A DNA stretch of 64,000 nucleotides from an uncultured Pseudomonadales bacterium (GCA_964519905.1 CAZFLN010000006.1:4058-68057); one strand, 5' to 3'; shown: positions 13,615-64,000, counted from the first letter of the stretch. A program made the numbers and translations. Notes: a model not told the origin generated them from the sequence alone.

Positions 13615-13740
13615 GGTTGTAGACATAATCAAGATTTAATCATTATTTCCTTTTTAAGTAAGCGCTTGTTTGAGATATAACGAGCGGATAAGTTAGTTAT
13701 GACCTAATCCCAGTTTTTCGAAACCGGGTATGGTCAAAAA

Positions 13741-13783
13741 ACCTGAAAGATAAACAACCCTCGCTGAGGAGTATCTTTCAGGT
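13741..13783. other. 12-bp perfect inverted repeat (acctgaaagata...tatctttcaggt) with 19-nt loop
   Basis: seen directly; lies between the mod gene and the att repeat. Confidence 0.4.
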
Positions 13784-13873
13784 CATGTCAGGAAACTGGC
13801 ATGCGTGGCAATACGGTACTCGGCGGGGGCTTTTTGCCACTCCCAAACGAGTCGCCTCGAACCTTACGATACT

Positions 13874-30430: not shown

Positions 30431-30748
30431 AGGTTTGTTTAGACGTTCGCGTAGCTCTTTTTGGAGTTATGAGGAAAGTCCGGACAGCAGAACGCAGGGT
30501 GCCAAGTGAAAGCTTGGGGGCATGGCAACATGCAACAGTGAGAGCCACAGAAACGATCCGGGTAACGCCGGCTGAAACGCCAAGTGGTCCTTCATCGAGA
30601 GATGAATGAGGCAATCCTCCCCGCTGCAACCGCCGATTTTCACCGTGTTGGATGCGTTCCCAGCTGCTTTTGCAGCCGGTGATAAGGTTGCGGGCATCAG
30701 AGAAATGAACGTCCCCGACAGAATCTGGCTTATCGAACAGACCTCAGT
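30431..30748 (+). ncRNA. rnpB: RNase P RNA (bacterial type, reduced length of about 318 nt)
   Basis: GAGGAAAGTCCGGAC P4 5' strand; ACAGAATCTGGCTTATCG P4 3' strand; P1 pairing aggtttgtt/aacagacct; TATAAT at 30416-30421; hairpin terminator at 30754-30781. Confidence 0.8.
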
Positions 30749-50941: not shown

Positions 50942-52759
50942 TTACCAGCTCCCGCCGCCACCACCACCGCCACCGCCGCCAGATGATCCTCCTCCACCAC
51001 TCCAGCCAGATGATGAACTCGATGGGGCAGAAAACCCAGCTTTGGATTGTGAACGAAAAGAGTTGACTAAGCTTTGTTGCATCAGTCCGTTTTGAACGAG
51101 TGCTTGGGCATATTCTGGGGGTTTGAGGTGCAGGTCTTTGAGGTCTTTCGTAAGTTGTCTCACAACTCCAAATGCGACCGCGAACGGAAGGACTTCTTCC
51201 ACAAAAAGGTTTTTTTCCTTAATTTCTTCTCGCCACTTCCCGCGTGAGATTGTTTGACTCAGACCTTTCATCTTCCAGGCAAGATTACTTCCGACTGCTG
51301 TTCGGCTTGGCATCGCCCAAGCACAAGCAAGGGAGAGACCAGTCGAAAATATGAAGAGTGGCCAAAGAAGCATGGGAACAAATGGCGACAAAGCATTGAG
51401 TGCGCCAACCAGAATCACGGCATTGACTCCAATTGCAGCGAATATCCAGCCGGTTCGTATATAACTGGTTCGTCCTTGGATGAGATTTTTTTCTACGAGC
51501 TGCTTTTCGATCTCTTGTCCAACTTTGTGCATTGTCATGGAAAGCTTTCCACTCAAATCTTTGAGTGAAACTTCGTCTCCCGTAGCAAAAATTCCATCGA
51601 GAAGGACTTGTTGTGCGGCAGAGATTTTCTGCTTGGTATTTATTTTTTTCTTGAACCAGTACTCATTCTTCTTTCGTCGTTCGATGGTGAGAAGTTTTTT
51701 TCTGGCTAAATCAAGAATCTCAGCCGTCACCGCTTCTTGAGAAAATTGTTCTTGGACAAGGAAACTTGCTTCGCCAGGAGTCAGCTCTTTGGGTGGTTCG
51801 TAGATGAATGGAACCGTCGGCAAGTTCCAGGGCCAGTACTGTTTTTGCTCCCCAGAAGTGTTGGGAGTATGAATATTTCCACCATACCACCAGTCGCGAC
51901 CTTTCTTTCTGTAAGCATTTACAAAGAAAAGAACTGGGCCAATGGCAAAGAAGAGTGCCCAGTTATCTTTGAGCCACCATACCCAAGTTTGCAGTGGCGT
52001 GGGAGCTTGGACTGGTCCAGATGAATCAAGAGAAATTTGAGCGGTGACATTGTCTCCAAAGTAGATTGTTTTTGGATACGTGAGTTCAGCTGTTTTTCCT
52101 GAAGCAGTAATAGTACATAAGAAGTTATTTTTTCCATACGCACCAGAGAAACACTCAGCCAGAGTGATCTCGTTTGGACTGGTAATTGTGGCAGAGGTGG
52201 AAAAGACAGGAATGCGCCAGCTTTCTCCTACAATGTCCCAGTACAACTGTGGTGTTTCTGGAGAGTCGCTGTGAGCTTGAATAGCATGATCGACTCTATA
52301 CGAAATCGTATAGGTTTTTGGTCCAGTAAAGGTGGTGATTGGGTCACCGATCTTGAGAGTCAAGAACGCCCCATCGGCTGTTTGCTCAACCGGTACCGAT
52401 CGACCATCTGCCCGGACTCGCACGTCTCGTACCTGTGCAGTAAATCGCCATCCGTCGCGGTTGTAACGGAAGGGAATTTGGCGGTAAATGCCATGACGGG
52501 GACTTGGGGCAAAGAATTCAAGTGTTTCGGTAATGATGATGTCGCCATTTTCCTGAATTTGTATATCACTGTGGAAAGAGTGAATACCTTCTTGGAGTGA
52601 GACGGTATCTTCGGTGTTTGATTGCGCGTTGATTTGGTTTGCGTGTGTGAGTGGAACTATTGTAAAAATCACTGCCAAAATCAGGTACAATGCGGTGGTA
52701 TGACAACCTCGGCACACTTGAGCGATTTGGCGGAACAGATTTGGAAAGAACTGGATCAT
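50942..52759 (-). CDS. DUF2207-like membrane protein with C-terminal poly-Gly/Ser tail
   Basis: signal peptide, central TM helices, SSSSSGWSGGGGSSGGGGGGGGGGSW C-terminus; the annotated Met start overlaps nrnA head-to-head by about 60 nt; an internal GTG/TTG start is possible. Confidence 0.6.
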   Translation of the reverse strand: MIQFFPNLFRQIAQVCRGCHTTALYLILAVIFTIVPLTHANQINAQSNTEDTVSLQEGIHSFHSDIQIQENGDIIITETLEFFAPSPRHGIYRQIPFRYNRDGWRFTAQVRDVRVRADGRSVPVEQTADGAFLTLKIGDPITTFTGPKTYTISYRVDHAIQAHSDSPETPQLYWDIVGESWRIPVFSTSATITSPNEITLAECFSGAYGKNNFLCTITASGKTAELTYPKTIYFGDNVTAQISLDSSGPVQAPTPLQTWVWWLKDNWALFFAIGPVLFFVNAYRKKGRDWWYGGNIHTPNTSGEQKQYWPWNLPTVPFIYEPPKELTPGEASFLVQEQFSQEAVTAEILDLARKKLLTIERRKKNEYWFKKKINTKQKISAAQQVLLDGIFATGDEVSLKDLSGKLSMTMHKVGQEIEKQLVEKNLIQGRTSYIRTGWIFAAIGVNAVILVGALNALSPFVPMLLWPLFIFSTGLSLACAWAMPSRTAVGSNLAWKMKGLSQTISRGKWREEIKEKNLFVEEVLPFAVAFGVVRQLTKDLKDLHLKPPEYAQALVQNGLMQQSLVNSFRSQSKAGFSAPSSSSSGWSGGGGSSGGGGGGGGGGSW

Positions 52760-54226: not shown

Positions 54227-54760
54227 TTAGAAAGTCAGTTCCATGAATCGCACCGTGGTTGGTGGCTGGAAAGTACTATCTGGAAGAGACTCAAACGTAC
54301 AGCTGATCTGCTCTTTTACCTTTTCCATTTCCTCGATTTCTTCTTCAGTTAAGTCTGAAAGATTAAAGGGATCATTGTCTGAGTCTGAATCAGTATCTGA
54401 ACCTTCAGTTTCATACTCTACAACCGGCATCTTTATGCCTGTCTCTTCCCCACTACTCCAGATATAGGTAAACTCCCCGTCGGTGAGGATATTGGCCGTT
54501 TCGTTGAGCTCAGGGTCGACGGAAGAAATAAACTGTTTCTTTCCACTCGACTTGAATTCGGCATCACCATCTTCTGAGCGGATGGTACAAGAGATATCAT
54601 TTCCTGCCTGCAGTGCGGCATAAATTCGGCTCTGGCCAACAATGTTGTCTCCCGTTGCTTCTTGGGATTGTCCGAGACCAGGAACATTTGCAGGGATGCA
54701 AGCCGTGAGTAAAACTCCAGAGAAAATGGTGAGTGCAGTGAGGGAAATTCGATGTAACAT
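54227..54760 (-). CDS. lipoprotein, acidic; unknown function
   Basis: lipobox LLTAC after a signal peptide. Confidence 0.5.
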   Translation of the reverse strand: MLHRISLTALTIFSGVLLTACIPANVPGLGQSQEATGDNIVGQSRIYAALQAGNDISCTIRSEDGDAEFKSSGKKQFISSVDPELNETANILTDGEFTYIWSSGEETGIKMPVVEYETEGSDTDSDSDNDPFNLSDLTEEEIEEMEKVKEQISCTFESLPDSTFQPPTTVRFMELTF

Positions 54761-55108
54761 GAACGGCTCCTTTTTGGTATGAGTCGACCCCCAATTTTGA
54801 GGGCTGTATTGGTTATAGCGTGTTGAGCAGATATTTGCAATGCGGTTGGAGAGCGAGTGCGTTGATGGTGCACCTATTGTACCAAAATTGGAACACCTTA
54901 CTTGAGTACCTGAGGAAACTTACTGAAACTGTCTCACGATGGTTCGATGTGCCAGTCCCTGCCTACCAGATTTCGGTCTAAATTATTCCACCTTAGAGGG
55001 AATAGAACATTGTTAGATGCGACAAATTCTTCGGGTTATTTTATAATCAAAGTATATAAAACGGAAGATGAAAATAGAGACTTCCGTCCCAATTTGGATT
55101 GAAACACA

Positions 55109-58018
55109 ATGGCAAAATATGATTTTCTAACACCAGATGGACATAAACCAATACGAGAAGTTCGTGCCGAGTTATTACAGCCATCTACGTGGAATGGTCC
55201 AAAACTTACTGAAGATGACGTAGACGCAGTAATTGAGCTGTTTTGGTTCCGTGATGCTCACGCTGCATTTATTTCTAAGGAAGAGATTTATCCTAAGTTT
55301 CTTGAATTCCTAAAAGAAAGAAAAGGTAAGAGCTTTAGGAGAGTTGATTTTTATGACTACCTTTTCTCGAGTCACCCACTTTACAAAGAGATACTCACAC
55401 TTGCTTATATTTTTGAAGAAGGAATGAGTGACAAGATTCCAGAGCAAGAATATCAAGAACTTGAGAAAAGACTTTCATTACACACAGGTCAATTAGTTTC
55501 AGAGCATATTTTGTACATAGATGAAGAAAACGCCATCCTTTCTCACCATACTATTTCCGAATACTTCGTTTCTCGAGATTTATTGACAAAAAAGAGTCCA
55601 CTTGAAGAATTAGAAAAGTTAGCAGTTATTGATGTTCCACAAACTGGAGAGCGCTATTTCAATCCTTCGTGGTATGGGGTCGTTTATTTCTTACTCGACT
55701 CAGAGATAACTCCTAGGCTTGTAGATTTTTTTACTAGTTTGGCTGACACAAATAAAAAAGTTGTTGACCAGAATTACTCTGAAATACTCTCCCACTCTAA
55801 TCTTGACTTACTTACCACTAAGCAAAGAAAAAAACTTTTCAATCAAATTTACACAAACTCGAAAGAGTCTGGCATTTGGATTTCAGAATGGGCAGTTGCT
55901 GGTCTGGTAAACCTTTATTCTAATGAAAGTACAGAAACTCTAGAAAGAGATTTAGTTGATGAACCTAGTGAATTTCCTGACATTCTCAAAACAGCGAACG
56001 TTGTTGCTGTAATGGGAGCATTACTTGAGGAAAAAAGGATAATTGATAAAGAAACCAAAAACCGTTGGAAAGATATTTTTATCAAATATGCAACTCAAAA
56101 AATTGGCAATGGAGTTCTACAACGGCGTAGTCTAAAAGCACTAGAGAGTTTTGATGATGAATCAATTATTGACCAAGTAAAGTCGTCATTTGACTTTACA
56201 AATGAAGGAGTACTAGAACAGTTCGTTCAGGAGGCATTCCTTCGTCTCTGCTATGAAATAGCACCAAATCATCCAACAACTATTGAGTACGTTATTAGAG
56301 GTTTTGACTCTCAAGCTCGTGCTTATGCCTGGTTTGGTTTGCAAAAAATAACTAACCTTGATTCAATCCTAAAATTTCTCGAGCAGCTAAGTAATGACTC
56401 AAAGTTACTAGACTTATTTTTGGATGATGAGAGTATTTTTTTGAAAAGCGATGAAGATGACGAAGAGGAGAAAGCATTCTTGCAGAGAGTAAGAGAGTTG
56501 GCTAACTCTGAAAAATTAGAGGAATTTTTGTCTATTGCTGCCAATCTAATTGTGGAAGCTTGCGATGTTCAACGCTATTACTACATTCAAAAGAAAACAT
56601 TTGTTCCCACTGTCTTGGAAACGGCGTTAGCAGCTGAACCAGATTTTTGGAGACGATTACTTACAGCAGAACCTGGTGAAAAAAGAAACCGTGAACACTT
56701 CAACCTCATTCATTTATTAGCCTCTGTGACCAATGAAAATAACTGTCAAAGTATCAGTGGTGGTATCAGAGAACTCAAACCAGATTTATTTGATAAATAT
56801 GTTTACAACATCCCTGTGAAGCAAGTAAGGGACAAGCTTATTGAAGAGCATTCTTTGAAGCCTATTGAGACAAGAGATTGGGAGAAGGAAGAAGCTGATA
56901 GAAAGCAAAAATTTATTGATGATTTCAACTTCAAGTTAGAACCAGAACCAAAGCAGTACATTACAGACGTTTTTGATTATTATTTACGTAATAAAAAAGA
57001 AATTGGAGAGCTTACTGTAAAGCAACGAGAAAGACTACTCTTCTTAGCATATGAAGACGGAGTCAAACGACTCAATCCCCGTGATTTTACATTGAAAATA
57101 AATAAATATGGCGACGGGAAGAATTTTTCCTGGTCTAGGCAAGCCCAGTTTTATGGGGATATGGTGAGAGTTGTTCGAGAGCTTGAACCACAACTCCTAG
57201 AAAACTGCAAACAGCAGCTGATTGACTTCATTCCTTTTGCATTCAGCGATGATGCCTCGACAATCAAGGAAGTTGTAGACCGAGTAGGTGAAGAAGAGAT
57301 TGCTTACCTCAATGAAGTGTTTTCTGACGAGGAAAATGATAGACGCTACTTGATGCCTAGCTCCTACATTTACTTCGTCCGTGATATGAAAAAGAAGGGA
57401 TGTGAACTTACTACTCCCAAAGAGGTTTTGAAATCATTTATTGGCGATGAGAAAATAAGTGAATATGACCAGAGTTCGGCTTTAGAAACCCTTGAATACT
57501 TTATAAACCAATCAGACCAGGATACTAAGCAATTTCTAAAGGAAATTGAAGGCAAGGAAGATAAAAGACTATCAGAAGAGGCAAATGCTCTTCTTATCAA
57601 GATATTCAAAGATAATGATTCGATTGATTGGAGATTCTCCAGTCTCAGGAAGTTTGCGGTACCTGTAAAACCTCATCGTAGTGGTGAAGTTTACAGTGTA
57701 GCTTTCCCAGAAGAAGAGTTTATTAGTCGTCCATTTATTTCCCCGCTGGTAGATGTTGGGAGTCCTAAATTGGCTAGCAAATTTATAAACCTTCTTGATT
57801 TTAGTTTCGAATTTTCTCAAGAGAAAGATTCTGAACAATTTTGTGAGTATGTAAATAGGTCTGTTTTAGCTTATTTTGAGAAAATAGCTAAACCAGAAAA
57901 TTATAAACTCTTTCTAGAATTAGAGGAAAAAGTCCAAAATAGTGAAAGTATTTTTTGGAAATACCATCTGCCCAATCTACGCATTCTTTATTTGAATAGG
58001 AAGGTGAGCAATGCCTAG
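55109..58018 (+). CDS. 969-aa alpha-helical repeat protein of unknown function
   Basis: long ORF in the AT-rich block; no NTPase or nuclease motif seen. Confidence 0.55.
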   Translation: MAKYDFLTPDGHKPIREVRAELLQPSTWNGPKLTEDDVDAVIELFWFRDAHAAFISKEEIYPKFLEFLKERKGKSFRRVDFYDYLFSSHPLYKEILTLAYIFEEGMSDKIPEQEYQELEKRLSLHTGQLVSEHILYIDEENAILSHHTISEYFVSRDLLTKKSPLEELEKLAVIDVPQTGERYFNPSWYGVVYFLLDSEITPRLVDFFTSLADTNKKVVDQNYSEILSHSNLDLLTTKQRKKLFNQIYTNSKESGIWISEWAVAGLVNLYSNESTETLERDLVDEPSEFPDILKTANVVAVMGALLEEKRIIDKETKNRWKDIFIKYATQKIGNGVLQRRSLKALESFDDESIIDQVKSSFDFTNEGVLEQFVQEAFLRLCYEIAPNHPTTIEYVIRGFDSQARAYAWFGLQKITNLDSILKFLEQLSNDSKLLDLFLDDESIFLKSDEDDEEEKAFLQRVRELANSEKLEEFLSIAANLIVEACDVQRYYYIQKKTFVPTVLETALAAEPDFWRRLLTAEPGEKRNREHFNLIHLLASVTNENNCQSISGGIRELKPDLFDKYVYNIPVKQVRDKLIEEHSLKPIETRDWEKEEADRKQKFIDDFNFKLEPEPKQYITDVFDYYLRNKKEIGELTVKQRERLLFLAYEDGVKRLNPRDFTLKINKYGDGKNFSWSRQAQFYGDMVRVVRELEPQLLENCKQQLIDFIPFAFSDDASTIKEVVDRVGEEEIAYLNEVFSDEENDRRYLMPSSYIYFVRDMKKKGCELTTPKEVLKSFIGDEKISEYDQSSALETLEYFINQSDQDTKQFLKEIEGKEDKRLSEEANALLIKIFKDNDSIDWRFSSLRKFAVPVKPHRSGEVYSVAFPEEEFISRPFISPLVDVGSPKLASKFINLLDFSFEFSQEKDSEQFCEYVNRSVLAYFEKIAKPENYKLFLELEEKVQNSESIFWKYHLPNLRILYLNRKVSNA

Positions 58019-58877
58019 TCTCACCTCTAAACCTTCTGGAGAGCAACAAGACTATGATTTTCTGGTTTCACCAGATGTACCTGAAAGAGTTCGCTTAGCA
58101 AAAGAAAAAATCTTTGAATCATCTTCTTCAATTTTTGAAAAGATGAGTTCAATCTTCTTTATTATTTCTGAGGGATACTTGAGAGAGCTTCCACACGAGA
58201 TAGAACATTCGTTACTTGTGTGCAACTTAGTAACCCGTACTGAGCGTGGTTATGAGATAAACAAGGTAAATGGCCTCACTAGTCCTTTTTACGTTTCATT
58301 TACAGAGGTTGCTTATTTAGCAGCTGTATTTCAACCTTGTCTTTCCAGCTCAGAATACAGAGGTTTGATTGATTTTGATACAAGTCTCAACGGAGATAGT
58401 TTTTTTCTGAATAAAGACGAAATTGATAGGCTCAACTTAGTTGCTTTTATGGAGGTGCTTGGAATACTGAAAGTTGAAAAAGTATCTGGCATTAGAAAAA
58501 AGTGTGTTTTTTCGGAGGTAGGCAAACAATTTCTTAGTGAAATTAGAAATTATAAAGGTCCTGAAACAAAGGCTGAAATTATTTCTGAGCAAAGCAGTGT
58601 GGATGAAGTAGTAGAAGTTACTCAGACTTCATCTCCACCTGTGCCAAAATCAAAAAATAAGAATTTGGTAATGCAGGTTCTGCTATGGGGGAAGAACCAG
58701 GTTTGGGATAGTTTCAACGCATCAATAAAAATAGTACTAATTTCTGGATTTTTACTTACATTTGCAATGCTATTTATCTTCGTTATAAAACCTCATATTG
58801 GGCAAGGACAAATTGATTACTGGAAACCTAAAGTTGATGCGGCATATTCCTTTGTTGCAAGGCGCCTTTTCCCATAA
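58011..58877 (+). CDS. 288-aa protein with C-terminal TM anchor, translationally coupled to the 969-aa gene
   Basis: 8-nt overlap with the upstream stop; C-terminal helix IVLISGFLLTFAMLFIFVI. Confidence 0.5.
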   Translation: MPSLTSKPSGEQQDYDFLVSPDVPERVRLAKEKIFESSSSIFEKMSSIFFIISEGYLRELPHEIEHSLLVCNLVTRTERGYEINKVNGLTSPFYVSFTEVAYLAAVFQPCLSSSEYRGLIDFDTSLNGDSFFLNKDEIDRLNLVAFMEVLGILKVEKVSGIRKKCVFSEVGKQFLSEIRNYKGPETKAEIISEQSSVDEVVEVTQTSSPPVPKSKNKNLVMQVLLWGKNQVWDSFNASIKIVLISGFLLTFAMLFIFVIKPHIGQGQIDYWKPKVDAAYSFVARRLFP

Positions 58878-58881
58878 GTAT

Positions 58882-59247
58882 ATGTATAACAATCTTATTG
58901 AATATAGAAATGTTGCCATTCCAACTAATGCTTGCTTGCTTACCACAAGATATAGGTGCGGAAAGAAAAGTTGCAAGTGTAACCGTGGTTATCTACACAC
59001 AGCCAATGCTATCAAGTACAGAATTGACTCTGTTCAAAAAATGAAATACGTAAGGCAATCAGACGTTGAACGTGTTCGTAAACTTCTCTATCAAGCTAAA
59101 GGTATTGAGATATTAGAACGTGCAGATAAATACATCTTTTCTATTGCCGCAATGTTTCCAGAGCTAAGCGGTCAAGATATTCACATCAAGGCATACGAAG
59201 TTTTTGGACAACAAAAACAGCTCCCTGTCTTCTCTCCTGCCAACTGA
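58882..59247 (+). CDS. small Cys-cluster (zinc-ribbon-like) protein
   Basis: CGKKSCKCNRGYLH; start at MYNNLIE just after the upstream stop. Confidence 0.35.
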   Translation: MYNNLIEYRNVAIPTNACLLTTRYRCGKKSCKCNRGYLHTANAIKYRIDSVQKMKYVRQSDVERVRKLLYQAKGIEILERADKYIFSIAAMFPELSGQDIHIKAYEVFGQQKQLPVFSPAN

Positions 59248-59294
59248 TGATTGAAATAGCCCTGTTGTGGTATATCAGATAAAATGAATACCAG

Positions 59295-59798
59295 ATGTAT
59301 AGGGATAAAAATAAGCCACCATTATCACCACAGGATACTAAGTTTTGGAGCTATGCTGCCAAACTAAAGAAGAACGGTCACAAGACTATTGTTCACGCAT
59401 TAGCTTGGGAGTCTCCGAAAGCATATCAGTACCTACTCTCACTGTTTCGAGATAAAACTCCACTAGAACGCATCACAATTCTTCTCTGGCGTGATTATCA
59501 ATCCGTGGTCAGGAAACTTGAGATGAAAGGTTATGGCACGCTCTCACCATCCAGCCTGAGAACTTTTCGGGAAAAATACTTCCTTACTAAGGATCTTCCT
59601 AATCCTGAGTTGGATAAAAATAAGACGTCAGTAGAGGCAACACTCGCTCACCAGCTAGGCACACAACTCACCAAAATGGCTGAATCTCTCGATGAGATTG
59701 AACGAAGAGTGTATCCAACCAAAATTGGACATAATCTTCGTAAAAAAGCCTTTGATTCACTCCGAAAAGCTGTGATTTTGCAAACTCGATTGTCATAA
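59295..59798 (+). CDS. hypothetical protein
   Basis: 167-aa ORF. Confidence 0.4.
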   Translation: MYRDKNKPPLSPQDTKFWSYAAKLKKNGHKTIVHALAWESPKAYQYLLSLFRDKTPLERITILLWRDYQSVVRKLEMKGYGTLSPSSLRTFREKYFLTKDLPNPELDKNKTSVEATLAHQLGTQLTKMAESLDEIERRVYPTKIGHNLRKKAFDSLRKAVILQTRLS

Positions 59799-60068
59799 AG
59801 TGTCGGATAAGTCGGCATATTCTTGACGTACTCGGTCTGCGAGTCATACTAAGTTCATATATTCAATAAATACGGATATATCGAACTAATATGACATCAA
59901 GAAAATATAGAAATACCCCTATAAATCCTCTCAAATCAGAGCAGTTACTCACTCAAAAACAGCTCATCAGCAAGATAAATAAGCACACAGCCTTTACGTA
60001 TAGGTTTGTGGACATCCTTTCCAGACAAATTGACCAGATGGATAACAAGTACAGAAAGGATAAAGAAA

Positions 60069-60686
60069 ATGGCAGGTAAAGCTCCTTACAAACCCTCTCT
60101 AATTGGTGACTATGAATGGGACGAGGTTTCATCAGCACTCAATAAAATGATTCGCAGAAATCGTGAGTATGAAGCCTGCTTCTGGGCTTATGTCATACAC
60201 CAATCTGGTTATGGTCTGTATTTGTGGAGAAGACTTACCCTCATAGCTGCTGAAGATATTGGCAATGCTAGTCCAATGAGCCAAATCTTGGTTGATGCTC
60301 TGGCCTCAAATTGGGAACGGATGCACAAGCAAGCTAAAGAACCAACTTTAGCAAAGTTAGCTTTAGTGTTTCAGGCAATTCAAGCTCTTTGTCAGGCAAA
60401 GAAAACTCGTGAGATTGATGACCTGAGAAATCTCATTGCTCAGGAATACGAATATCTTGGTAAGAGGTTGGAAATCCCTGATGTAGCAAAAGACTGTCAC
60501 ACCGCCGTTGGCAAGGCTAAGTACGGAAAGTTTGGTGATAAAGATGGTCGTGAAGAAGAACGTCTGAGGCTCTGGAGAGCTGAATGGAATGTGGTTGAGC
60601 CAGAAGCATATAAGGGAAAGTACTTGGAGCAGCTCAAGGTAGTCGAGAAAGAAATTATCAAAAGAAAGGGAGAGGAAAAGGAGTGA
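60069..60686 (+). CDS. standalone MgsA/RarA C-terminal-domain-like protein
   Basis: MIRRNREYEACFWAY...LWRRLTLIAAEDIGNASP matches the MgsA_C signature (SIRGSDxDAALYW...RRLxxIAsEDIGlAdP). Confidence 0.5.
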   Translation: MAGKAPYKPSLIGDYEWDEVSSALNKMIRRNREYEACFWAYVIHQSGYGLYLWRRLTLIAAEDIGNASPMSQILVDALASNWERMHKQAKEPTLAKLALVFQAIQALCQAKKTREIDDLRNLIAQEYEYLGKRLEIPDVAKDCHTAVGKAKYGKFGDKDGREEERLRLWRAEWNVVEPEAYKGKYLEQLKVVEKEIIKRKGEEKE

Positions 60687-60868
60687 AAACTACTTTTTTT
60701 ATATTCGGTATTGAATATAAACCTGATTATAAATGATACGTAAAAGAATAATAAATCTAATTTTCCCAAGTATGAAATTTCTCATAATTCAGTCCCTAGC
60801 TTTTCAAATTTCTTCCCCAGATACAGTACCTATTTATATTGAACTAAATCAGGTTTAGACACACAAAA

Positions 60869-61780
60869 ATGAATATGCAAACCGCCATTACTCAGTTTCA
60901 AGATTACATAACAATACAGAAAGGTTTCTCACCAAAAACTATTGATGCTTACGTAAGTGACCTGAATAAATTTTCTGACTTTTTAGCGACTCGAAATTTT
61001 CCATTCACTGTTCACCAGATACAAGAAGAGCATATAGTGAGCTACTTAGCCTTTCTCTCACATCCTAATGATAATAAAAAGCCGAATCTCGCCACCTCAA
61101 GGGCAAGAAAATTAGCGAGTATTCGTAGTTTTTTCAATTTCTTGAGAAAAAAACACTATATTGATGTCAGTCCAGCAATAGATATTGATATTCCAAAATT
61201 ACCGCAGAAAGAACCTGACTATCTAACCATCAGTGAATACCAACATTTACTTGCCACAATTAGAGAAGTAGCTTCCCCATTTTTCAAGTTGCGTGATTTG
61301 TGTATTTTTTCGTTATTTCTTTCAACTGGAATTAGAGTTAGTGAACTAGTCAACCTTACACTCGCTGATGTTGACCTTGAATATAAGACAATAAAAATTC
61401 ATCGCAAAGGTAATAAGGAGCAAACCATACCTCTGAATGATGAAATTTCTACTCTTATTCGAGAATACCTTGCCAATCGTCCTGAAGCACAAATAAATCA
61501 GCTTTTTATTAGCAAAAAAGGTAATGGAGTCAAAGCAAATACTGTTTATTGTCTGGTAAAAAAGTACCTAAAGTTGGCAAATCTTGAGAAGAGCAAACAA
61601 GGCCCTCACATTCTAAGGCACTCCTGCCTTAGCACACTTCTCGCCAATGGTGTAAATCCAGTCATTATTCAGCAGTTAGCTGGACATAGAAGCTTCGATA
61701 CAACCAGACGTTACTTACACCTCAATAACGCTCAAATTCGTGAAGCAGTACAAACAATAAATCTGAAAGGAGATTTATGA
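60869..61780 (+). CDS. tyrosine recombinase (XerC/XerD-like integrase)
   Basis: SAM-like N-terminal domain; catalytic R (GIRVSE), HILRHS, GHRSFDTTRRYLH (H-R-Y). Confidence 0.8.
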   Translation: MNMQTAITQFQDYITIQKGFSPKTIDAYVSDLNKFSDFLATRNFPFTVHQIQEEHIVSYLAFLSHPNDNKKPNLATSRARKLASIRSFFNFLRKKHYIDVSPAIDIDIPKLPQKEPDYLTISEYQHLLATIREVASPFFKLRDLCIFSLFLSTGIRVSELVNLTLADVDLEYKTIKIHRKGNKEQTIPLNDEISTLIREYLANRPEAQINQLFISKKGNGVKANTVYCLVKKYLKLANLEKSKQGPHILRHSCLSTLLANGVNPVIIQQLAGHRSFDTTRRYLHLNNAQIREAVQTINLKGDL

Positions 61781-61926
61781 CCAAAGCAGTAAAAATTATC
61801 GCCATTGGATTGGCTGTGATAGTTGGTATCACATTTATCTCAATGATGTTTTCTGGCAAGGCTCAAGAGTCATTCCAGCAAGGAATGGATAGTGCCAAAA
61901 ATACTGTTCAAGAAGGAGGAAAATGA
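61777..61926 (+). CDS. 49-aa membrane peptide
   Basis: ATGA overlaps with both neighbours; one TM helix. Confidence 0.3.
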   Translation: MTKAVKIIAIGLAVIVGITFISMMFSGKAQESFQQGMDSAKNTVQEGGK

Positions 61927-62627
61927 AAACAGCAACGAAAAAACCAATGAAGTGGTGGATGTGGTTAGTAGCTCTCGCTTTCTTACCCATCTCGCTGAGC
62001 GTATGGGCGTGGAAAAAGGAAAACTGGTCACAATCTAAAAAACTCAAAGTTATTGCTGGTGTTTGGATAGGTTTCCTGGTGATTGGTGCTTTGAATGGTT
62101 CATTTGCTGAACCTTCCACTACATCGTCACAAAATACCGTCAACAATGCTGTTTCTCAGCCTCCTAAAGAGGAAAAAAGAGACGAAAATGCAGTCATCAA
62201 TCAAGAACTCCTTGATGAGAGAAAAACCTACGATACGCAACGTGGGAATAACTTGGAAGCTGCCAAAACTGCTCAAGCCCTCGTTGACCTAGCTCAAGCT
62301 GCTAGTCCAGGCACAGGATTTGATACATATATTCGTCTTGAAGCGCCAGATAAAGCCAGCAAAAAGTATGAGCTGGGCGGAGATGCACAAGAATATAAAA
62401 ATGAAGTTAGTTTTGTTGGCTTGACTATTGTGATTGATTCAAGTGTGTGGTCAGGTGCAAATGAAGACCAAAAAAAGAACTTGATTGCTTCTTGGGCTAA
62501 GATTATGCAAAACCAATATCCTAACGCTGGTGGCTGGATGAAAGTGACCAATGGTCTACGAGATGTGGCAGAAGCTAATTGGCTAACAGCTAAGTATGGG
62601 AAGAGTCCAGATATCAAATTGAAATAG
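61923..62627 (+). CDS. membrane-anchored secreted protein
   Basis: two N-terminal hydrophobic helices then a soluble domain. Confidence 0.45.
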   Translation: MKTATKKPMKWWMWLVALAFLPISLSVWAWKKENWSQSKKLKVIAGVWIGFLVIGALNGSFAEPSTTSSQNTVNNAVSQPPKEEKRDENAVINQELLDERKTYDTQRGNNLEAAKTAQALVDLAQAASPGTGFDTYIRLEAPDKASKKYELGGDAQEYKNEVSFVGLTIVIDSSVWSGANEDQKKNLIASWAKIMQNQYPNAGGWMKVTNGLRDVAEANWLTAKYGKSPDIKLK

Positions 62628-62858
62628 TTAGAAGAAAGTTGGTCTCAAAATTAGATTCACGCTCATTGACATTCTATTACTTTTATTGCGATACACAGAT
62701 ATATTTGCATATTTTGTTGTGTAATTGGTTGCTATAATGGCAATACGCAAAAAAGTTATTGCTAGCCACTCTGAGTGAGCTAAATCCTTCGGTACGGTGC
62801 CGAAGTCAAACAACAGTTCCGTAGTTATTTCTACTTGCGTTAGAAAGCTACGGTTGTT

Positions 62859-63044
62859 GTGAGACAAAGTTCAATTATCTCTATTGAAAAAGCCCAGGCA
62901 ATACTGCGTAAGAGCAAGCACAGTTTTTCAGATGACCAAACAGAGCGTCTGATTGATGTGATGGAAAAATTTTCTTCCGCAATTATCGACAAAATCGACT
63001 CCAAAAAAGAATCGGTTCCCCATTTGGCGGAGCGGAAAACTTAG
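62859..63044 (+). CDS. 61-aa small protein (GTG start) upstream of the second serine recombinase; homolog of 22338..22496
   Basis: about 35% identity over 36 aa (KA..L..KS....D.Q...ID....) with the small ORF preceding the first serine recombinase. Confidence 0.4.
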   Translation: MRQSSIISIEKAQAILRKSKHSFSDDQTERLIDVMEKFSSAIIDKIDSKKESVPHLAERKT

Positions 63045-63064
63045 CTATTATCTGAAGGTAAGAA

Positions 63065-64000
63065 ATGAGAGATAAAAAACCCACAGCACTAATAATGACG
63101 CGAGCATCATCTGGAAAACAGGTGATTGAAGGAGATACTATTGATGCTCAGATTGAAGATGCTAAATACTTTATAAGCCAAAATAATTGGGATTGGCATG
63201 CAAAAATATTTGAACTTGTTGAATCTGCCACTATCCCGGATAGGGAGCAATTTCAAGAGGTTTTAGACTTTTGTGAATCTCATAAAAATGAGATAGATTT
63301 TGTTGTTTTCAAAGATATTTCAAGACTAACAAGAAAAGGAACTACTGATTATTTCATACTCAAAAAAGGCCTAGCTGAGTTTGGTATAGAAATTAGAGAT
63401 ACAACTGGTGTGATTCGACCAGTTATAAACCCTTTCGAAAAATACAACCTCCAATATGACTGGGCTATGTATTCCCCCTCAGAGCGGGAAGAAGCAAATG
63501 AAGCAGAATCAGCAAGAGCTTATATGAGACAAAGTATTGGTCGAATGATTCTTGCTGAGGTGAGATATGCTAAAAAAGGTTATTGGGTTAGAAGTCCTGT
63601 TTATGGATTCAAAAACGAAAAAATAACTACCTCTGACGGAATCAGGAACATAATGGTGGAAGAACCTGATGAGGCATTTTTTGTACGATTGATTTTTCAA
63701 CTAAGGGCAGAGGGACAGTTGAATGATGTGGAAATATCAGAAAAACTCAACGGTATTGGTTTTAGAACTAGAAAAATTATAAGGAGAGATAAAAGAACCA
63801 AAGCAATTATTGGGTATGGAGGAGAAAATAAAATGACTCCTAAACTTCTTCAAAGGATGATACGAAGAACAATCTATGCTGAGGTGATTTGTGAAAAGTG
63901 GACCAAGCACAAACCAATTTTAGCTGCTTTCGATGGCTTGATTGATATTGATACATTCAACAAAGCCAATCGTGGAGCTATTGAACTTGAAATGCTAAGC
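63065..64000 (+). CDS. large serine recombinase, 5' portion (runs off the window)
   Basis: ATG at 63065 and open frame to 64000 with no stop; ALIMTRASSGKQ catalytic Ser region then recombinase domain (LRAEGQLNDVEISEKLNGIGFRTRK). Confidence 0.75.
   Translation, partial: MRDKKPTALIMTRASSGKQVIEGDTIDAQIEDAKYFISQNNWDWHAKIFELVESATIPDREQFQEVLDFCESHKNEIDFVVFKDISRLTRKGTTDYFILKKGLAEFGIEIRDTTGVIRPVINPFEKYNLQYDWAMYSPSEREEANEAESARAYMRQSIGRMILAEVRYAKKGYWVRSPVYGFKNEKITTSDGIRNIMVEEPDEAFFVRLIFQLRAEGQLNDVEISEKLNGIGFRTRKIIRRDKRTKAIIGYGGENKMTPKLLQRMIRRTIYAEVICEKWTKHKPILAAFDGLIDIDTFNKANRGAIELEMLS

Follow-up and report, generated by a model that had tools for sequence, protein, structure and literature searches.

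The window analysed here, i.e., the whole stretch of 64,000 nucleotides from an uncultured Pseudomonadales bacterium (GCA_964519905.1 CAZFLN010000006.1:4058-68057), ends in an AT-rich island in which two overlapping genes encode proteins of 969 and 288 amino acids (aa). We propose, as a reading that is reasonably probable, that this pair represents swappable defence-type cargo of an integrative element, consisting of a HEAT protein that derives from NACHT (NLR-like) proteins and is devoid of their ATPase domain, together with a translationally coupled, membrane-anchored partner. Judged from sequence, the pair probably acts in abortive-infection-type defence as an NTPase-less variant of NLR-like systems. 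A preliminary description of this DNA had suggested a candidate accessory or defence module, and this suggestion gains support from the NLR-like descent of the larger protein, from the occurrence of TIR, nuclease, and transmembrane (TM) domains in a single slot, and from neighbourhoods rich in restriction-modification (RM) genes. The two genes, identified as open reading frames (ORFs), are:

55109..58018, plus strand: 969-aa NACHT-derived protein lacking the nucleotide-binding domain (NBD) (ORF, profile homology)
58011..58877, plus strand: 288-aa partner in the effector slot (ORF, hydropathy, structural model)

In single-sequence library scans, the 969-aa protein had no match in Pfam, NCBIfam or PADLOC, and its best match in PHROGs, to a family without known function, was at chance level (E 0.0036). 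The preliminary statement that this protein has no motifs holds for such library scans only, because profile searches give clear NACHT/STAND homology. A word-indexed protein search identified five relatives (100, 83, 73, 49, and 29% identity), and a profile built from these five homologues, run exhaustively against 1.84 billion cluster representatives, retrieved 346 representatives, including 203 at E<1e-30. About half of the 346 relatives are 965-1010 aa long and thus similar in size to the window protein. Many of the others span 1310-1435 aa, being extended by 170-310 residues N-terminally and by about 190 residues C-terminally; long proteins of roughly 1340 aa with NACHT make up about half of the set. 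The N-terminal extra of these long forms is a NACHT-type STAND P-loop domain, as seen most clearly in P0069 (38.1 bits versus a cut-off of 26.7; 1.8e-9); other long forms gave weaker but consistent NACHT scores, with a helix-turn-helix (HTH) domain preceding NACHT in some of them. Their C-terminal extra is a nuclease-like, PD-(D/E)xK-like domain. All 65 N-terminal extensions (65/65) of the long relatives carry D[GAS]hDE, the signature that separates NACHT from other STAND clades (bioRxiv 10.1101/2022.07.19.500537), and their Walker A consensus is EPGxGKT. The long relatives P0069-P0172, all outside the window, form a family of about 1340 aa with the architecture (HTH)-NACHT-HEAT-PD-(D/E)xK-like C-terminal domain; in PADLOC v2, long relatives matched generic P-loop or HTH models only.

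The window protein aligns with the long forms from about residue 26, directly past their NACHT Pfam domain, and comprises a helical and winged-helix part (approximately residues 26-190), a HEAT-type alpha-solenoid, and a variable C-terminal region of about 190 residues. Walker A (GxxxxGK[ST]) was absent from it under both strict and relaxed patterns, motif searches found neither Walker B nor D[GAS]hDE, and Pfam gave no P-loop match. The motif ILSHHTISEYFVS at residues 143-155 aligns with IEFxNTEFQEYLAA of the long forms; we take this region to be the winged-helix signature of NLRs (FxHxSFQEFLAA), in which His146 presumably corresponds to the sensor histidine. An AlphaFold2 (AF2) model shows a helix/beta-hairpin pattern at residues 105-185, a PBS-HEAT-like motif (NGVLQRRSLKALESF) is found at residues 334-348, and the all-alpha HEAT solenoid corresponds to the C-terminal, repeat-type sensor of STAND proteins. 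Fold searches with the model returned generic HEAT/ARM solenoids only, and comparison of the sequence profile with known structures recovered no NLR structure (NOD2 at E 0.78). Because of the alignment that starts past NACHT, the conserved motif, and the lack of both Walker A and D[GAS]hDE, we interpret the 969-aa protein as the helical/winged-helix and HEAT-sensor part of a bacterial NACHT protein minus its NBD; these homologies show that it descends from bacterial NACHT (NLR-like STAND) proteins and has evidently lost the P-loop domain as well as the covalently attached effector. Of the approaches proposed in the preliminary description, remote homology led to NACHT relatives and structure prediction to a HEAT solenoid.

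The window protein is not a truncated pseudogene, since 49 NBD-less representatives, each standing for one 50%-identity cluster, share its N-terminus and group together in one contiguous clade of a neighbour-joining tree, apart from the NBD-bearing forms. The idea that the NBD is encoded separately beside the short forms was ruled out, as no separate NBD ORF was found within 8-10 kb in any of 59 loci. In five metagenomic loci (L014, L028, L048, L050, and L067), the first 190-240 residues or so, i.e., the helical/winged-helix part, form a separate ORF just upstream of the rest; either the gene has been divided at a domain boundary in these cases, or frameshifts may have arisen repeatedly. Identity of the window protein to its close relatives is 88-98% at residues 240-720 and at most 65% at residues 780-969, a pattern that is consistent with residues 780-969 being a docking or recognition surface that co-varies with the partner.

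With regard to the partner, the ORF coordinates agree with the 8-nt overlap described preliminarily (ATGCCTAG), and GGAAGGTGA lies just upstream of the 288-aa start as ribosome-binding site. Hydropathy shows a single hydrophobic segment at approximately residues 235-258 (nt 58713-58784), in keeping with the C-terminal TM segment that had been reported. An AF2 model, built on a shallow alignment of 3 sequences, has an overall pLDDT of 63.5 (about 80 at residues 21-180) and contains a long helix at residues 217-262; the predicted layout is a cytoplasmic N-domain with two winged-helix-like (helix/beta-hairpin) units at approximately residues 21-180, a disordered linker, the TM helix, and a short tail. 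The only fold neighbours of the N-domain were winged-helix proteins, none of them significant. No informative match to the 288-aa protein was obtained in single-sequence scans of Pfam, NCBIfam, PADLOC, and PHROGs, and a word-index search with it found only a near-identical copy and one other homologue. Between the window and L001, the big gene has about 80% DNA identity (83% for the protein); similarity is lost at 57978-58971, and the two partners are only 29% identical. TM-anchored partners of this type are found in the window, L001, L005, L007-9, and L049, those of L001, L005, and L049 being homologues. In P0003/L004, where the big protein is 73% identical to that of the window, a window-type N-domain appears to be fused (hhalign E 6e-5, probability 65%), and the fused protein is followed, with a 4-nt overlap, by a 60-aa ORF that ends in a TM helix; a fused N-domain with a separate TM peptide is what would be expected of proteins that work as a complex. 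The possibility that the 200-aa extension of P0003 represents the whole partner was ruled out by BLAST, with hhalign rescuing the N-domain only. Homology between the L002 partner and that of the window was likewise rejected on comparison.

The position occupied by the partner was compared across 59 metagenomic loci, one locus from a metagenome-assembled genome (MAG), and the contigs of the close homologues; a scan of genome contigs with the single protein found none, and the alignment query found the one MAG. Among the 59 loci that hold the C-terminus of a family protein, a coupled plus-strand ORF is present downstream in 37, with a gap of -47 to +20 nt (mode -4) and mostly with a length of about 190-320 aa, down to 70 aa in a few cases, and a fused C-terminal domain of 147-214 residues is present in 17. 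This slot is hence filled, by a coupled or a fused sequence, in 54/59 loci, the remainder being 3 contig ends and 2 ambiguous cases. Coupled partners can be homologous to fused extensions, as is the case for the L002 partner and the C-terminal extension of P0036 (7e-9) and for the L006 partner and that of P0080 (1e-12). Slot contents include TIR domains, represented by the L059 partner (TIR_2, 1.5e-14) and by a 19-member cluster with the motif KIFISHAS (probability 97.6% and E 4e-12 versus TIR by hhalign), a Mrr-type restriction endonuclease in the extension of P0063 (Mrr_cat, 1.6e-6), two further clusters with D...E.K motifs, one of which matches the PADLOC candidate PDC-M36A (8e-7), and a helical domain of about 150 residues with an RNEFTH motif, which is a candidate HEPN domain. 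In the window, the 969-aa polypeptide itself contains no effector; its separate, coupled partner sits where relatives carry fused TIR or Mrr. These loci demonstrate translational coupling and a modular effector slot, and the two-component unit proposed preliminarily stands, with the coupling and overlap conserved in homologous loci and the partner fused in relatives.

A key feature of the surrounding DNA is that the pair can be exchanged as a cassette between a conserved leader and a conserved set of downstream genes, here referred to as the backbone. The further features of the island are:

55019..55090, plus strand: control region at the conserved left end (promoter-like site, 31-nt shared stretch, hairpin)
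58882..59247, plus strand: 121-aa Cys-cluster protein, DUF6788-like, first backbone gene (sub-threshold Pfam match)
59295..59798, plus strand: 167-aa backbone protein (ORF and synteny, without family match)
60069..60686, plus strand: 205-aa standalone MgsA_C-like protein, i.e., RarA C-terminal domain, backbone gene (Pfam, PDB)
60869..61780, plus strand: 303-aa tyrosine recombinase, XerC/D-like, phage-integrase family (Pfam)
61923..62627, plus strand: 234-aa membrane protein, last backbone gene ahead of a second variable region (ORF, synteny)
63065..64000, plus strand: N-terminal part of a large serine recombinase, whose ORF leaves the window (sequence reading, weak NCBIfam matches)

The strongest evidence for exchange comes from L070 and L071, two near-complete contigs of 1.37 and 1.10 Mb that keep the DUF6788-like, 167-aa, and MgsA_C-like genes, the integrase, and a 256-aa protein, with a backbone DNA identity of 76% to the window (at least 90% identity for the MgsA_C-like protein), and that carry, in place of the 969-aa and 288-aa genes, a DUF6602/NucC-like nuclease (PADLOC PD_DExK, 2.8e-27) and a 400-aa protein. 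When the window is aligned with L070, the DNA is similar over 55038-55068 and, after a gap, along the backbone from 58984 on; because similarity flanks but skips the interval in between, 55069-58983 can be delimited as an exchangeable cassette between the leader and the backbone operon, and the alignment shows that cassette exchange has evidently occurred there. The replacing genes, at L070:6827-8798 and also in L071, resemble the window pair in arrangement, as the 258-aa DUF6602/NucC-like PD-(D/E)xK nuclease gene overlaps the 400-aa gene by 8 nt; this pair is a candidate for another two-gene defence system. The window and five close contigs have the same genes after the pair, through a membrane protein of 231-235 aa, and the 167-aa protein, for which library scans gave no family match, is syntenic in L001, L007-9, L069, and L070/71. 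The 234-aa membrane protein of the window is syntenic with the 231-256-aa genes of the sibling elements, past which lies a second variable site; DNA similarity to the siblings ends at 62626. In the window this second site (62627-63064) is empty, without an RM system, whereas it holds a C5 methylase and an NgoBV-type endonuclease in L007-9 (L007:9198-11182), a different C5 methylase in L001 (L001:8107-9865), and a type I hsdMSR system in L070/71 (L070:12571-20618). In siblings where the membrane protein is followed by a C5 methylase, with or without the NgoBV-type endonuclease, a large serine recombinase comes next; at the matching place, the sibling recombinases are 503-511 aa long with Resolvase and Recombinase domains, and the ORF that starts at 63065 in the window has weak NCBIfam matches of CcrB/XisF type. 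The 303-aa recombinase matches PF00589 (Phage_integrase, 8.9e-39) and, for its SAM-like N-domain, PF02899 (8.8e-17); it scores 217 versus a cut-off of 330 in NCBIfam and hence does not classify as a XerC/XerD equivalog.

GC content was determined in 1-kb windows and then in 300-nt windows around the step. Between about 14 kb and 55.0 kb it amounts to 0.44-0.48, with 1-kb values of 0.46-0.48 ahead of the step, and beyond 55.0 kb it stays at 0.36-0.40 until the window ends; the fall, from 0.46 to 0.36 at about 54.95 kb, is located between 54.85 and 55.0 kb, in agreement with the sharp drop at about 55.0 kb noted preliminarily. The block had been taken to end at 60686, but the AT-rich region runs on to at least 64000 and includes the tyrosine recombinase and the start of the large serine recombinase, two genes that bear out the claim of a recombinase-bearing element. 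The region 55.0-64.0 kb is best explained as belonging to an integrative mobile element, of which it would form the left part, with a tyrosine and a large serine recombinase. At its left end, the best sigma-70-like site in 54.7-63.1 kb, GCGACA-17-TATAAT (55019-55047), overlaps the 31-nt stretch at 55038-55068, which is common to sibling elements with other cargo (29/31 identical in L070) and at whose first position DNA similarity between the window and L001 begins exactly. A six-locus alignment shows the -10 box and a GGGAC-N4-GTCCC hairpin, and a small hairpin in the 5' untranslated region (55077-55090 in the window) follows the 31-nt stretch in most loci; the conserved leader at 55019-55090 is a predicted promoter/control region. 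The actual left junction of the island could be situated anywhere from 54760 to 55038, because a 50-nt stretch upstream of the island (54877-54926) is 90% identical to L004:36-85 while the upstream sequence of other sibling contigs is unlike that of the window and L004. No convincing direct or inverted repeats marking the ends of the cassette or the element were found within the window.

The Cys-cluster and MgsA_C-like genes, which the preliminary description had grouped with the pair, belong to the element backbone on the basis of synteny, since both persist in L070/L071, where the pair is replaced. The 121-aa protein carries the Cys cluster CGKKSCKCNRGYLH and reaches 18.2 bits with DUF6788, below the cut-off of 27.2. 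The protein described as 206 aa long with only the C-terminal domain of RarA/MgsA is in fact 205 aa long; the remainder of that description stands, as the protein narrowly passes the Pfam cut-off for MgsA_C (28.5 bits versus 27), matches RarA C-domains in PDB (3bge, 1.4e-6; 3pvs, 1.7e-5), and contains the motif RRLTLIAAEDIGNA. It shares with RarA/MgsA the MgsA_C domain with the conserved IAxEDIGNA region and differs from these proteins in having no AAA+ module: only MgsA_C matches were found, NCBIfam RarA models score 20-25 bits versus cut-offs of 570-1197, and E. coli RarA is 447 aa long. Standalone proteins of this kind also occur in phages, as indicated by a match to phrog_33349 (3.6e-18) and by gp78 of Arthrobacter phage KellEzio (239 aa, 31% identity, 6e-15), whose gene has RecB-like exonuclease and HNH genes as neighbours in a DNA-metabolism region. 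Most economically, the MgsA_C-like protein would help the element to replicate or recombine its DNA; this standalone RarA-C-terminal-like protein is part of the backbone, presumably in DNA transactions, and is not a defence gene. Small ORFs lie on either side of its gene on the plus strand, at 59891-60079 (62 aa) and 60733-60858 (41 aa); these are annotated in some sibling contigs and not in others.

The pair also occurs without the backbone, in L002 and L006, contrary to the preliminary view of one linked block; in both loci it sits in a local GC trough, and in L002, on an 876-kb contig, it stands alone between an M48 peptidase gene and dnaE. When 141 ORFs next to family members, taken from about 45 independent loci, were classified with Pfam, RM components dominated (Eco57I 9, N6_Mtase 8, Methylase_S 7, ResIII 5, TaqI_C 5, HsdM_N 4, EcoEI_R_C 3), and integrases and PLD nucleases were present as well. 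Genomic contexts of the pair differ between genomes, which argues against a housekeeping gene in core synteny, and the synteny comparison of homologues suggested preliminarily showed pair and backbone to be separable. Searches with tblastn found no relatives in 50,697 phage records or in a plasmid collection, and none were found in IMG/VR viral contigs; the absence of a phage match, together with the chance-level PHROGs score, argues against a phage structural protein. The related contigs, with lengths of 0.9-1.4 Mb, come from groundwater and sediment metagenomes, and the data suggest small-genome uncultured bacteria as hosts of the relatives. In literature searches, we found no description of the 969-aa family.

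Several other explanations of the pair were weighed against the defence-cargo reading. It is unlikely, though worth considering, that the NBD-less protein is non-autonomous, i.e., that it serves as sensor or decoy and uses its helical and winged-helix domains (HD/WHD) to assemble with a full-length NACHT paralogue elsewhere in the genome, similar to sensor/helper NLR pairs, or that it poisons such a paralogue as an anti-defence factor encoded by a mobile genetic element (MGE). The HD/WHD mediates NOD-NOD contacts in NLR assemblies, and this part, along with the His that matches the sensor His of NLRs in the alignment, has been kept in a protein that is carried on a mobile element and has full-length paralogues with the same solenoid in metagenomes. 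However, the short forms have effectors of their own (TIR, Mrr-like, TM), fused or coupled, in 54 of the 59 loci, which would be needless for a pure inhibitor; in addition, no locus has an NBD-bearing paralogue within 8-10 kb, and the L002 pair is found alone between housekeeping genes. A little less likely again is that the pair secures maintenance of the element as an addiction or exclusion module, toxin-antitoxin-like, with a membrane toxin restrained by a large scaffold and without a role in sensing phages. Such a module would account for the tight coupling of a small TM protein with a large binding partner, for the location of the pair close to recombinase genes and terminally in an integrative element, and for cargo-slot neighbours that are RM systems, themselves also addiction modules; it accounts poorly for the occurrence of the pair without mobile-element genes (between the M48 peptidase gene and dnaE), for an immune-receptor-derived HEAT solenoid of 969 aa that far exceeds known antitoxins in size, and for a diversity of TIR and nuclease effectors that fits sensor-effector immunity.

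The remaining two explanations are both highly improbable. That the 969-aa protein is an ordinary HEAT scaffold with a membrane-anchor partner, serving for example envelope or surface biology without a role in conflict, would agree with fold searches that give only generic HEAT/ARM solenoids, with the lack of a catalytic motif, and with a partner that has no recognisable toxic domain, but not with the NACHT descent and the TIR or Mrr domains in the same slot, nor with a patchy distribution in low-GC islets, cassette exchange, and RM-rich neighbours. The least probable explanation is the grouping made in the preliminary description, according to which all genes in 55109-60686, including those for the Cys-cluster and MgsA_C-like proteins, constitute one functional module; while these genes share one strand and are closely spaced, lie in one AT-rich block, and are syntenic in five closely related contigs, L070/L071 keep the DUF6788-like, 167-aa, MgsA_C-like, and integrase genes without the pair, MgsA_C and DUF6788 are not among the recurrent families of the flanking-ORF census, and MgsA_C-like homologues occur in phage DNA-metabolism regions. 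The helper/decoy, scaffold, and single-module explanations are disfavoured because short forms bear fused TIR or nuclease domains and because pair and backbone are independent of each other.

Several points also weigh against the defence-cargo reading itself. Confidence in the model of the partner is only moderate (pLDDT 63.5), fold searches with it gave no significant match, its TM helix may serve simply for anchoring and not as a toxic effector, and support for fusion of the window's own partner type is modest (the hhalign probability of 65% given above). Among the slot contents, the candidate HEPN domain and the two nuclease-like clusters were recognised from motif alone. PADLOC v2 models match neither the 969-aa nor the 288-aa protein, so that the pair is not a catalogued system. 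Finally, the signalling step is speculative because canonical STAND activation cannot apply to a protein without an NBD.

If the pair is defence cargo, a possible mechanism can be outlined; we infer its role in defence as well as the individual steps, from sensing of a ligand through docking to attack on the membrane. The HEAT solenoid of the 969-aa protein would bind a protein of the invader (phage or MGE), as in other STAND sensors, and ligand binding might alter the assembly state of the complex or free the partner; activation by ligand-driven assembly or partner release is suggested because there is no nucleotide switch. The winged-helix-like domain of the 288-aa protein would probably dock on the variable C-terminal region of the 969-aa protein, and the tail-anchored partner could then oligomerise in, or perturb, the membrane, with abortive infection or exclusion as the outcome. 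Reuse of STAND sensors by defence proteins without an NTPase domain has been described for Avs7 and Dsr1 (PMC13581612), a precedent for STAND-derived sensors that signal independently of an NTPase. With bNACHT and Avs proteins, the window pair shares homologous post-NBD helical/winged-helix and HEAT-solenoid regions, long relatives that are genuine NACHT proteins with D[GAS]hDE, a family effector set of restriction endonuclease/Mrr, TIR, TM, and candidate HEPN domains, and defence-island-like surroundings; unlike in these systems, the P-loop NBD and with it the nucleotide switch are missing altogether, the presumed effector is made as a protein of its own from a translationally coupled gene, and neither protein matches a PADLOC Avs or NLR model. 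Dsr1 and the SIR2-HEAT protein Dsr2 likewise couple a large helical sensor to an effector without a STAND NTPase; however, no sequence relation to them was detected (no PADLOC matches), the NOD module is still represented in the window protein by its winged-helix part, and the effector is C-terminal or in trans, as opposed to an N-terminal SIR2 domain. P2/P4-type prophages and satellites carry variable anti-phage cargo between conserved flanks. The element resembles such mobile-element defence hotspots in that alternative cargo (the window pair versus the NucC-like nuclease and 400-aa protein, which exclude each other) lies between a conserved leader and a conserved backbone and in that its second slot holds type I or type II RM genes, or nothing; it differs in belonging to a distinct element lineage that carries both a tyrosine and a serine recombinase and that appears to stem from uncultured small-genome bacteria.

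A broader proposal, to which we would give somewhat less than an even chance, is that a whole NLR-like lineage, which comprises at least 49 of the 50%-identity clusters and stems for the most part from uncultured bacteria of groundwater and sediment, dropped the nucleotide switch, with the winged-helix/HEAT scaffold controlling interchangeable effectors, in trans or fused, that include TIR domains, nucleases, and a tail-anchored membrane protein with a tandem winged-helix adaptor. NLR/STAND receptors are defined by an NTP-driven oligomerisation switch, and an NBD-less clade raises the question of how signalling proceeds without nucleotide exchange. If the proposal is true, an NTP-independent mode of NLR-type signalling would have spread as plug-in cargo of integrative elements; the pair would offer a compact two-gene system for studying NBD-less signalling, and an uncatalogued defence family and a cargo hotspot would be added for small-genome uncultured bacteria, the immune repertoires of which are poorly known.

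Some additional features were recorded in the window. No Rfam families were found in the AT-rich island; in the host part, gathering-level Rfam matches were obtained for LOOT RNA (13701-13815, plus strand, 77.8 bits) and for bacterial RNase P class A (30431-30748, plus strand, 132.9 bits). Just outside the island, a gene on the minus strand (50942-52759) encodes a 605-aa membrane protein, the C-terminus of which is a long Gly/Ser run (SSSSSGWSGGGGSSGGGGGGGGGGSW).

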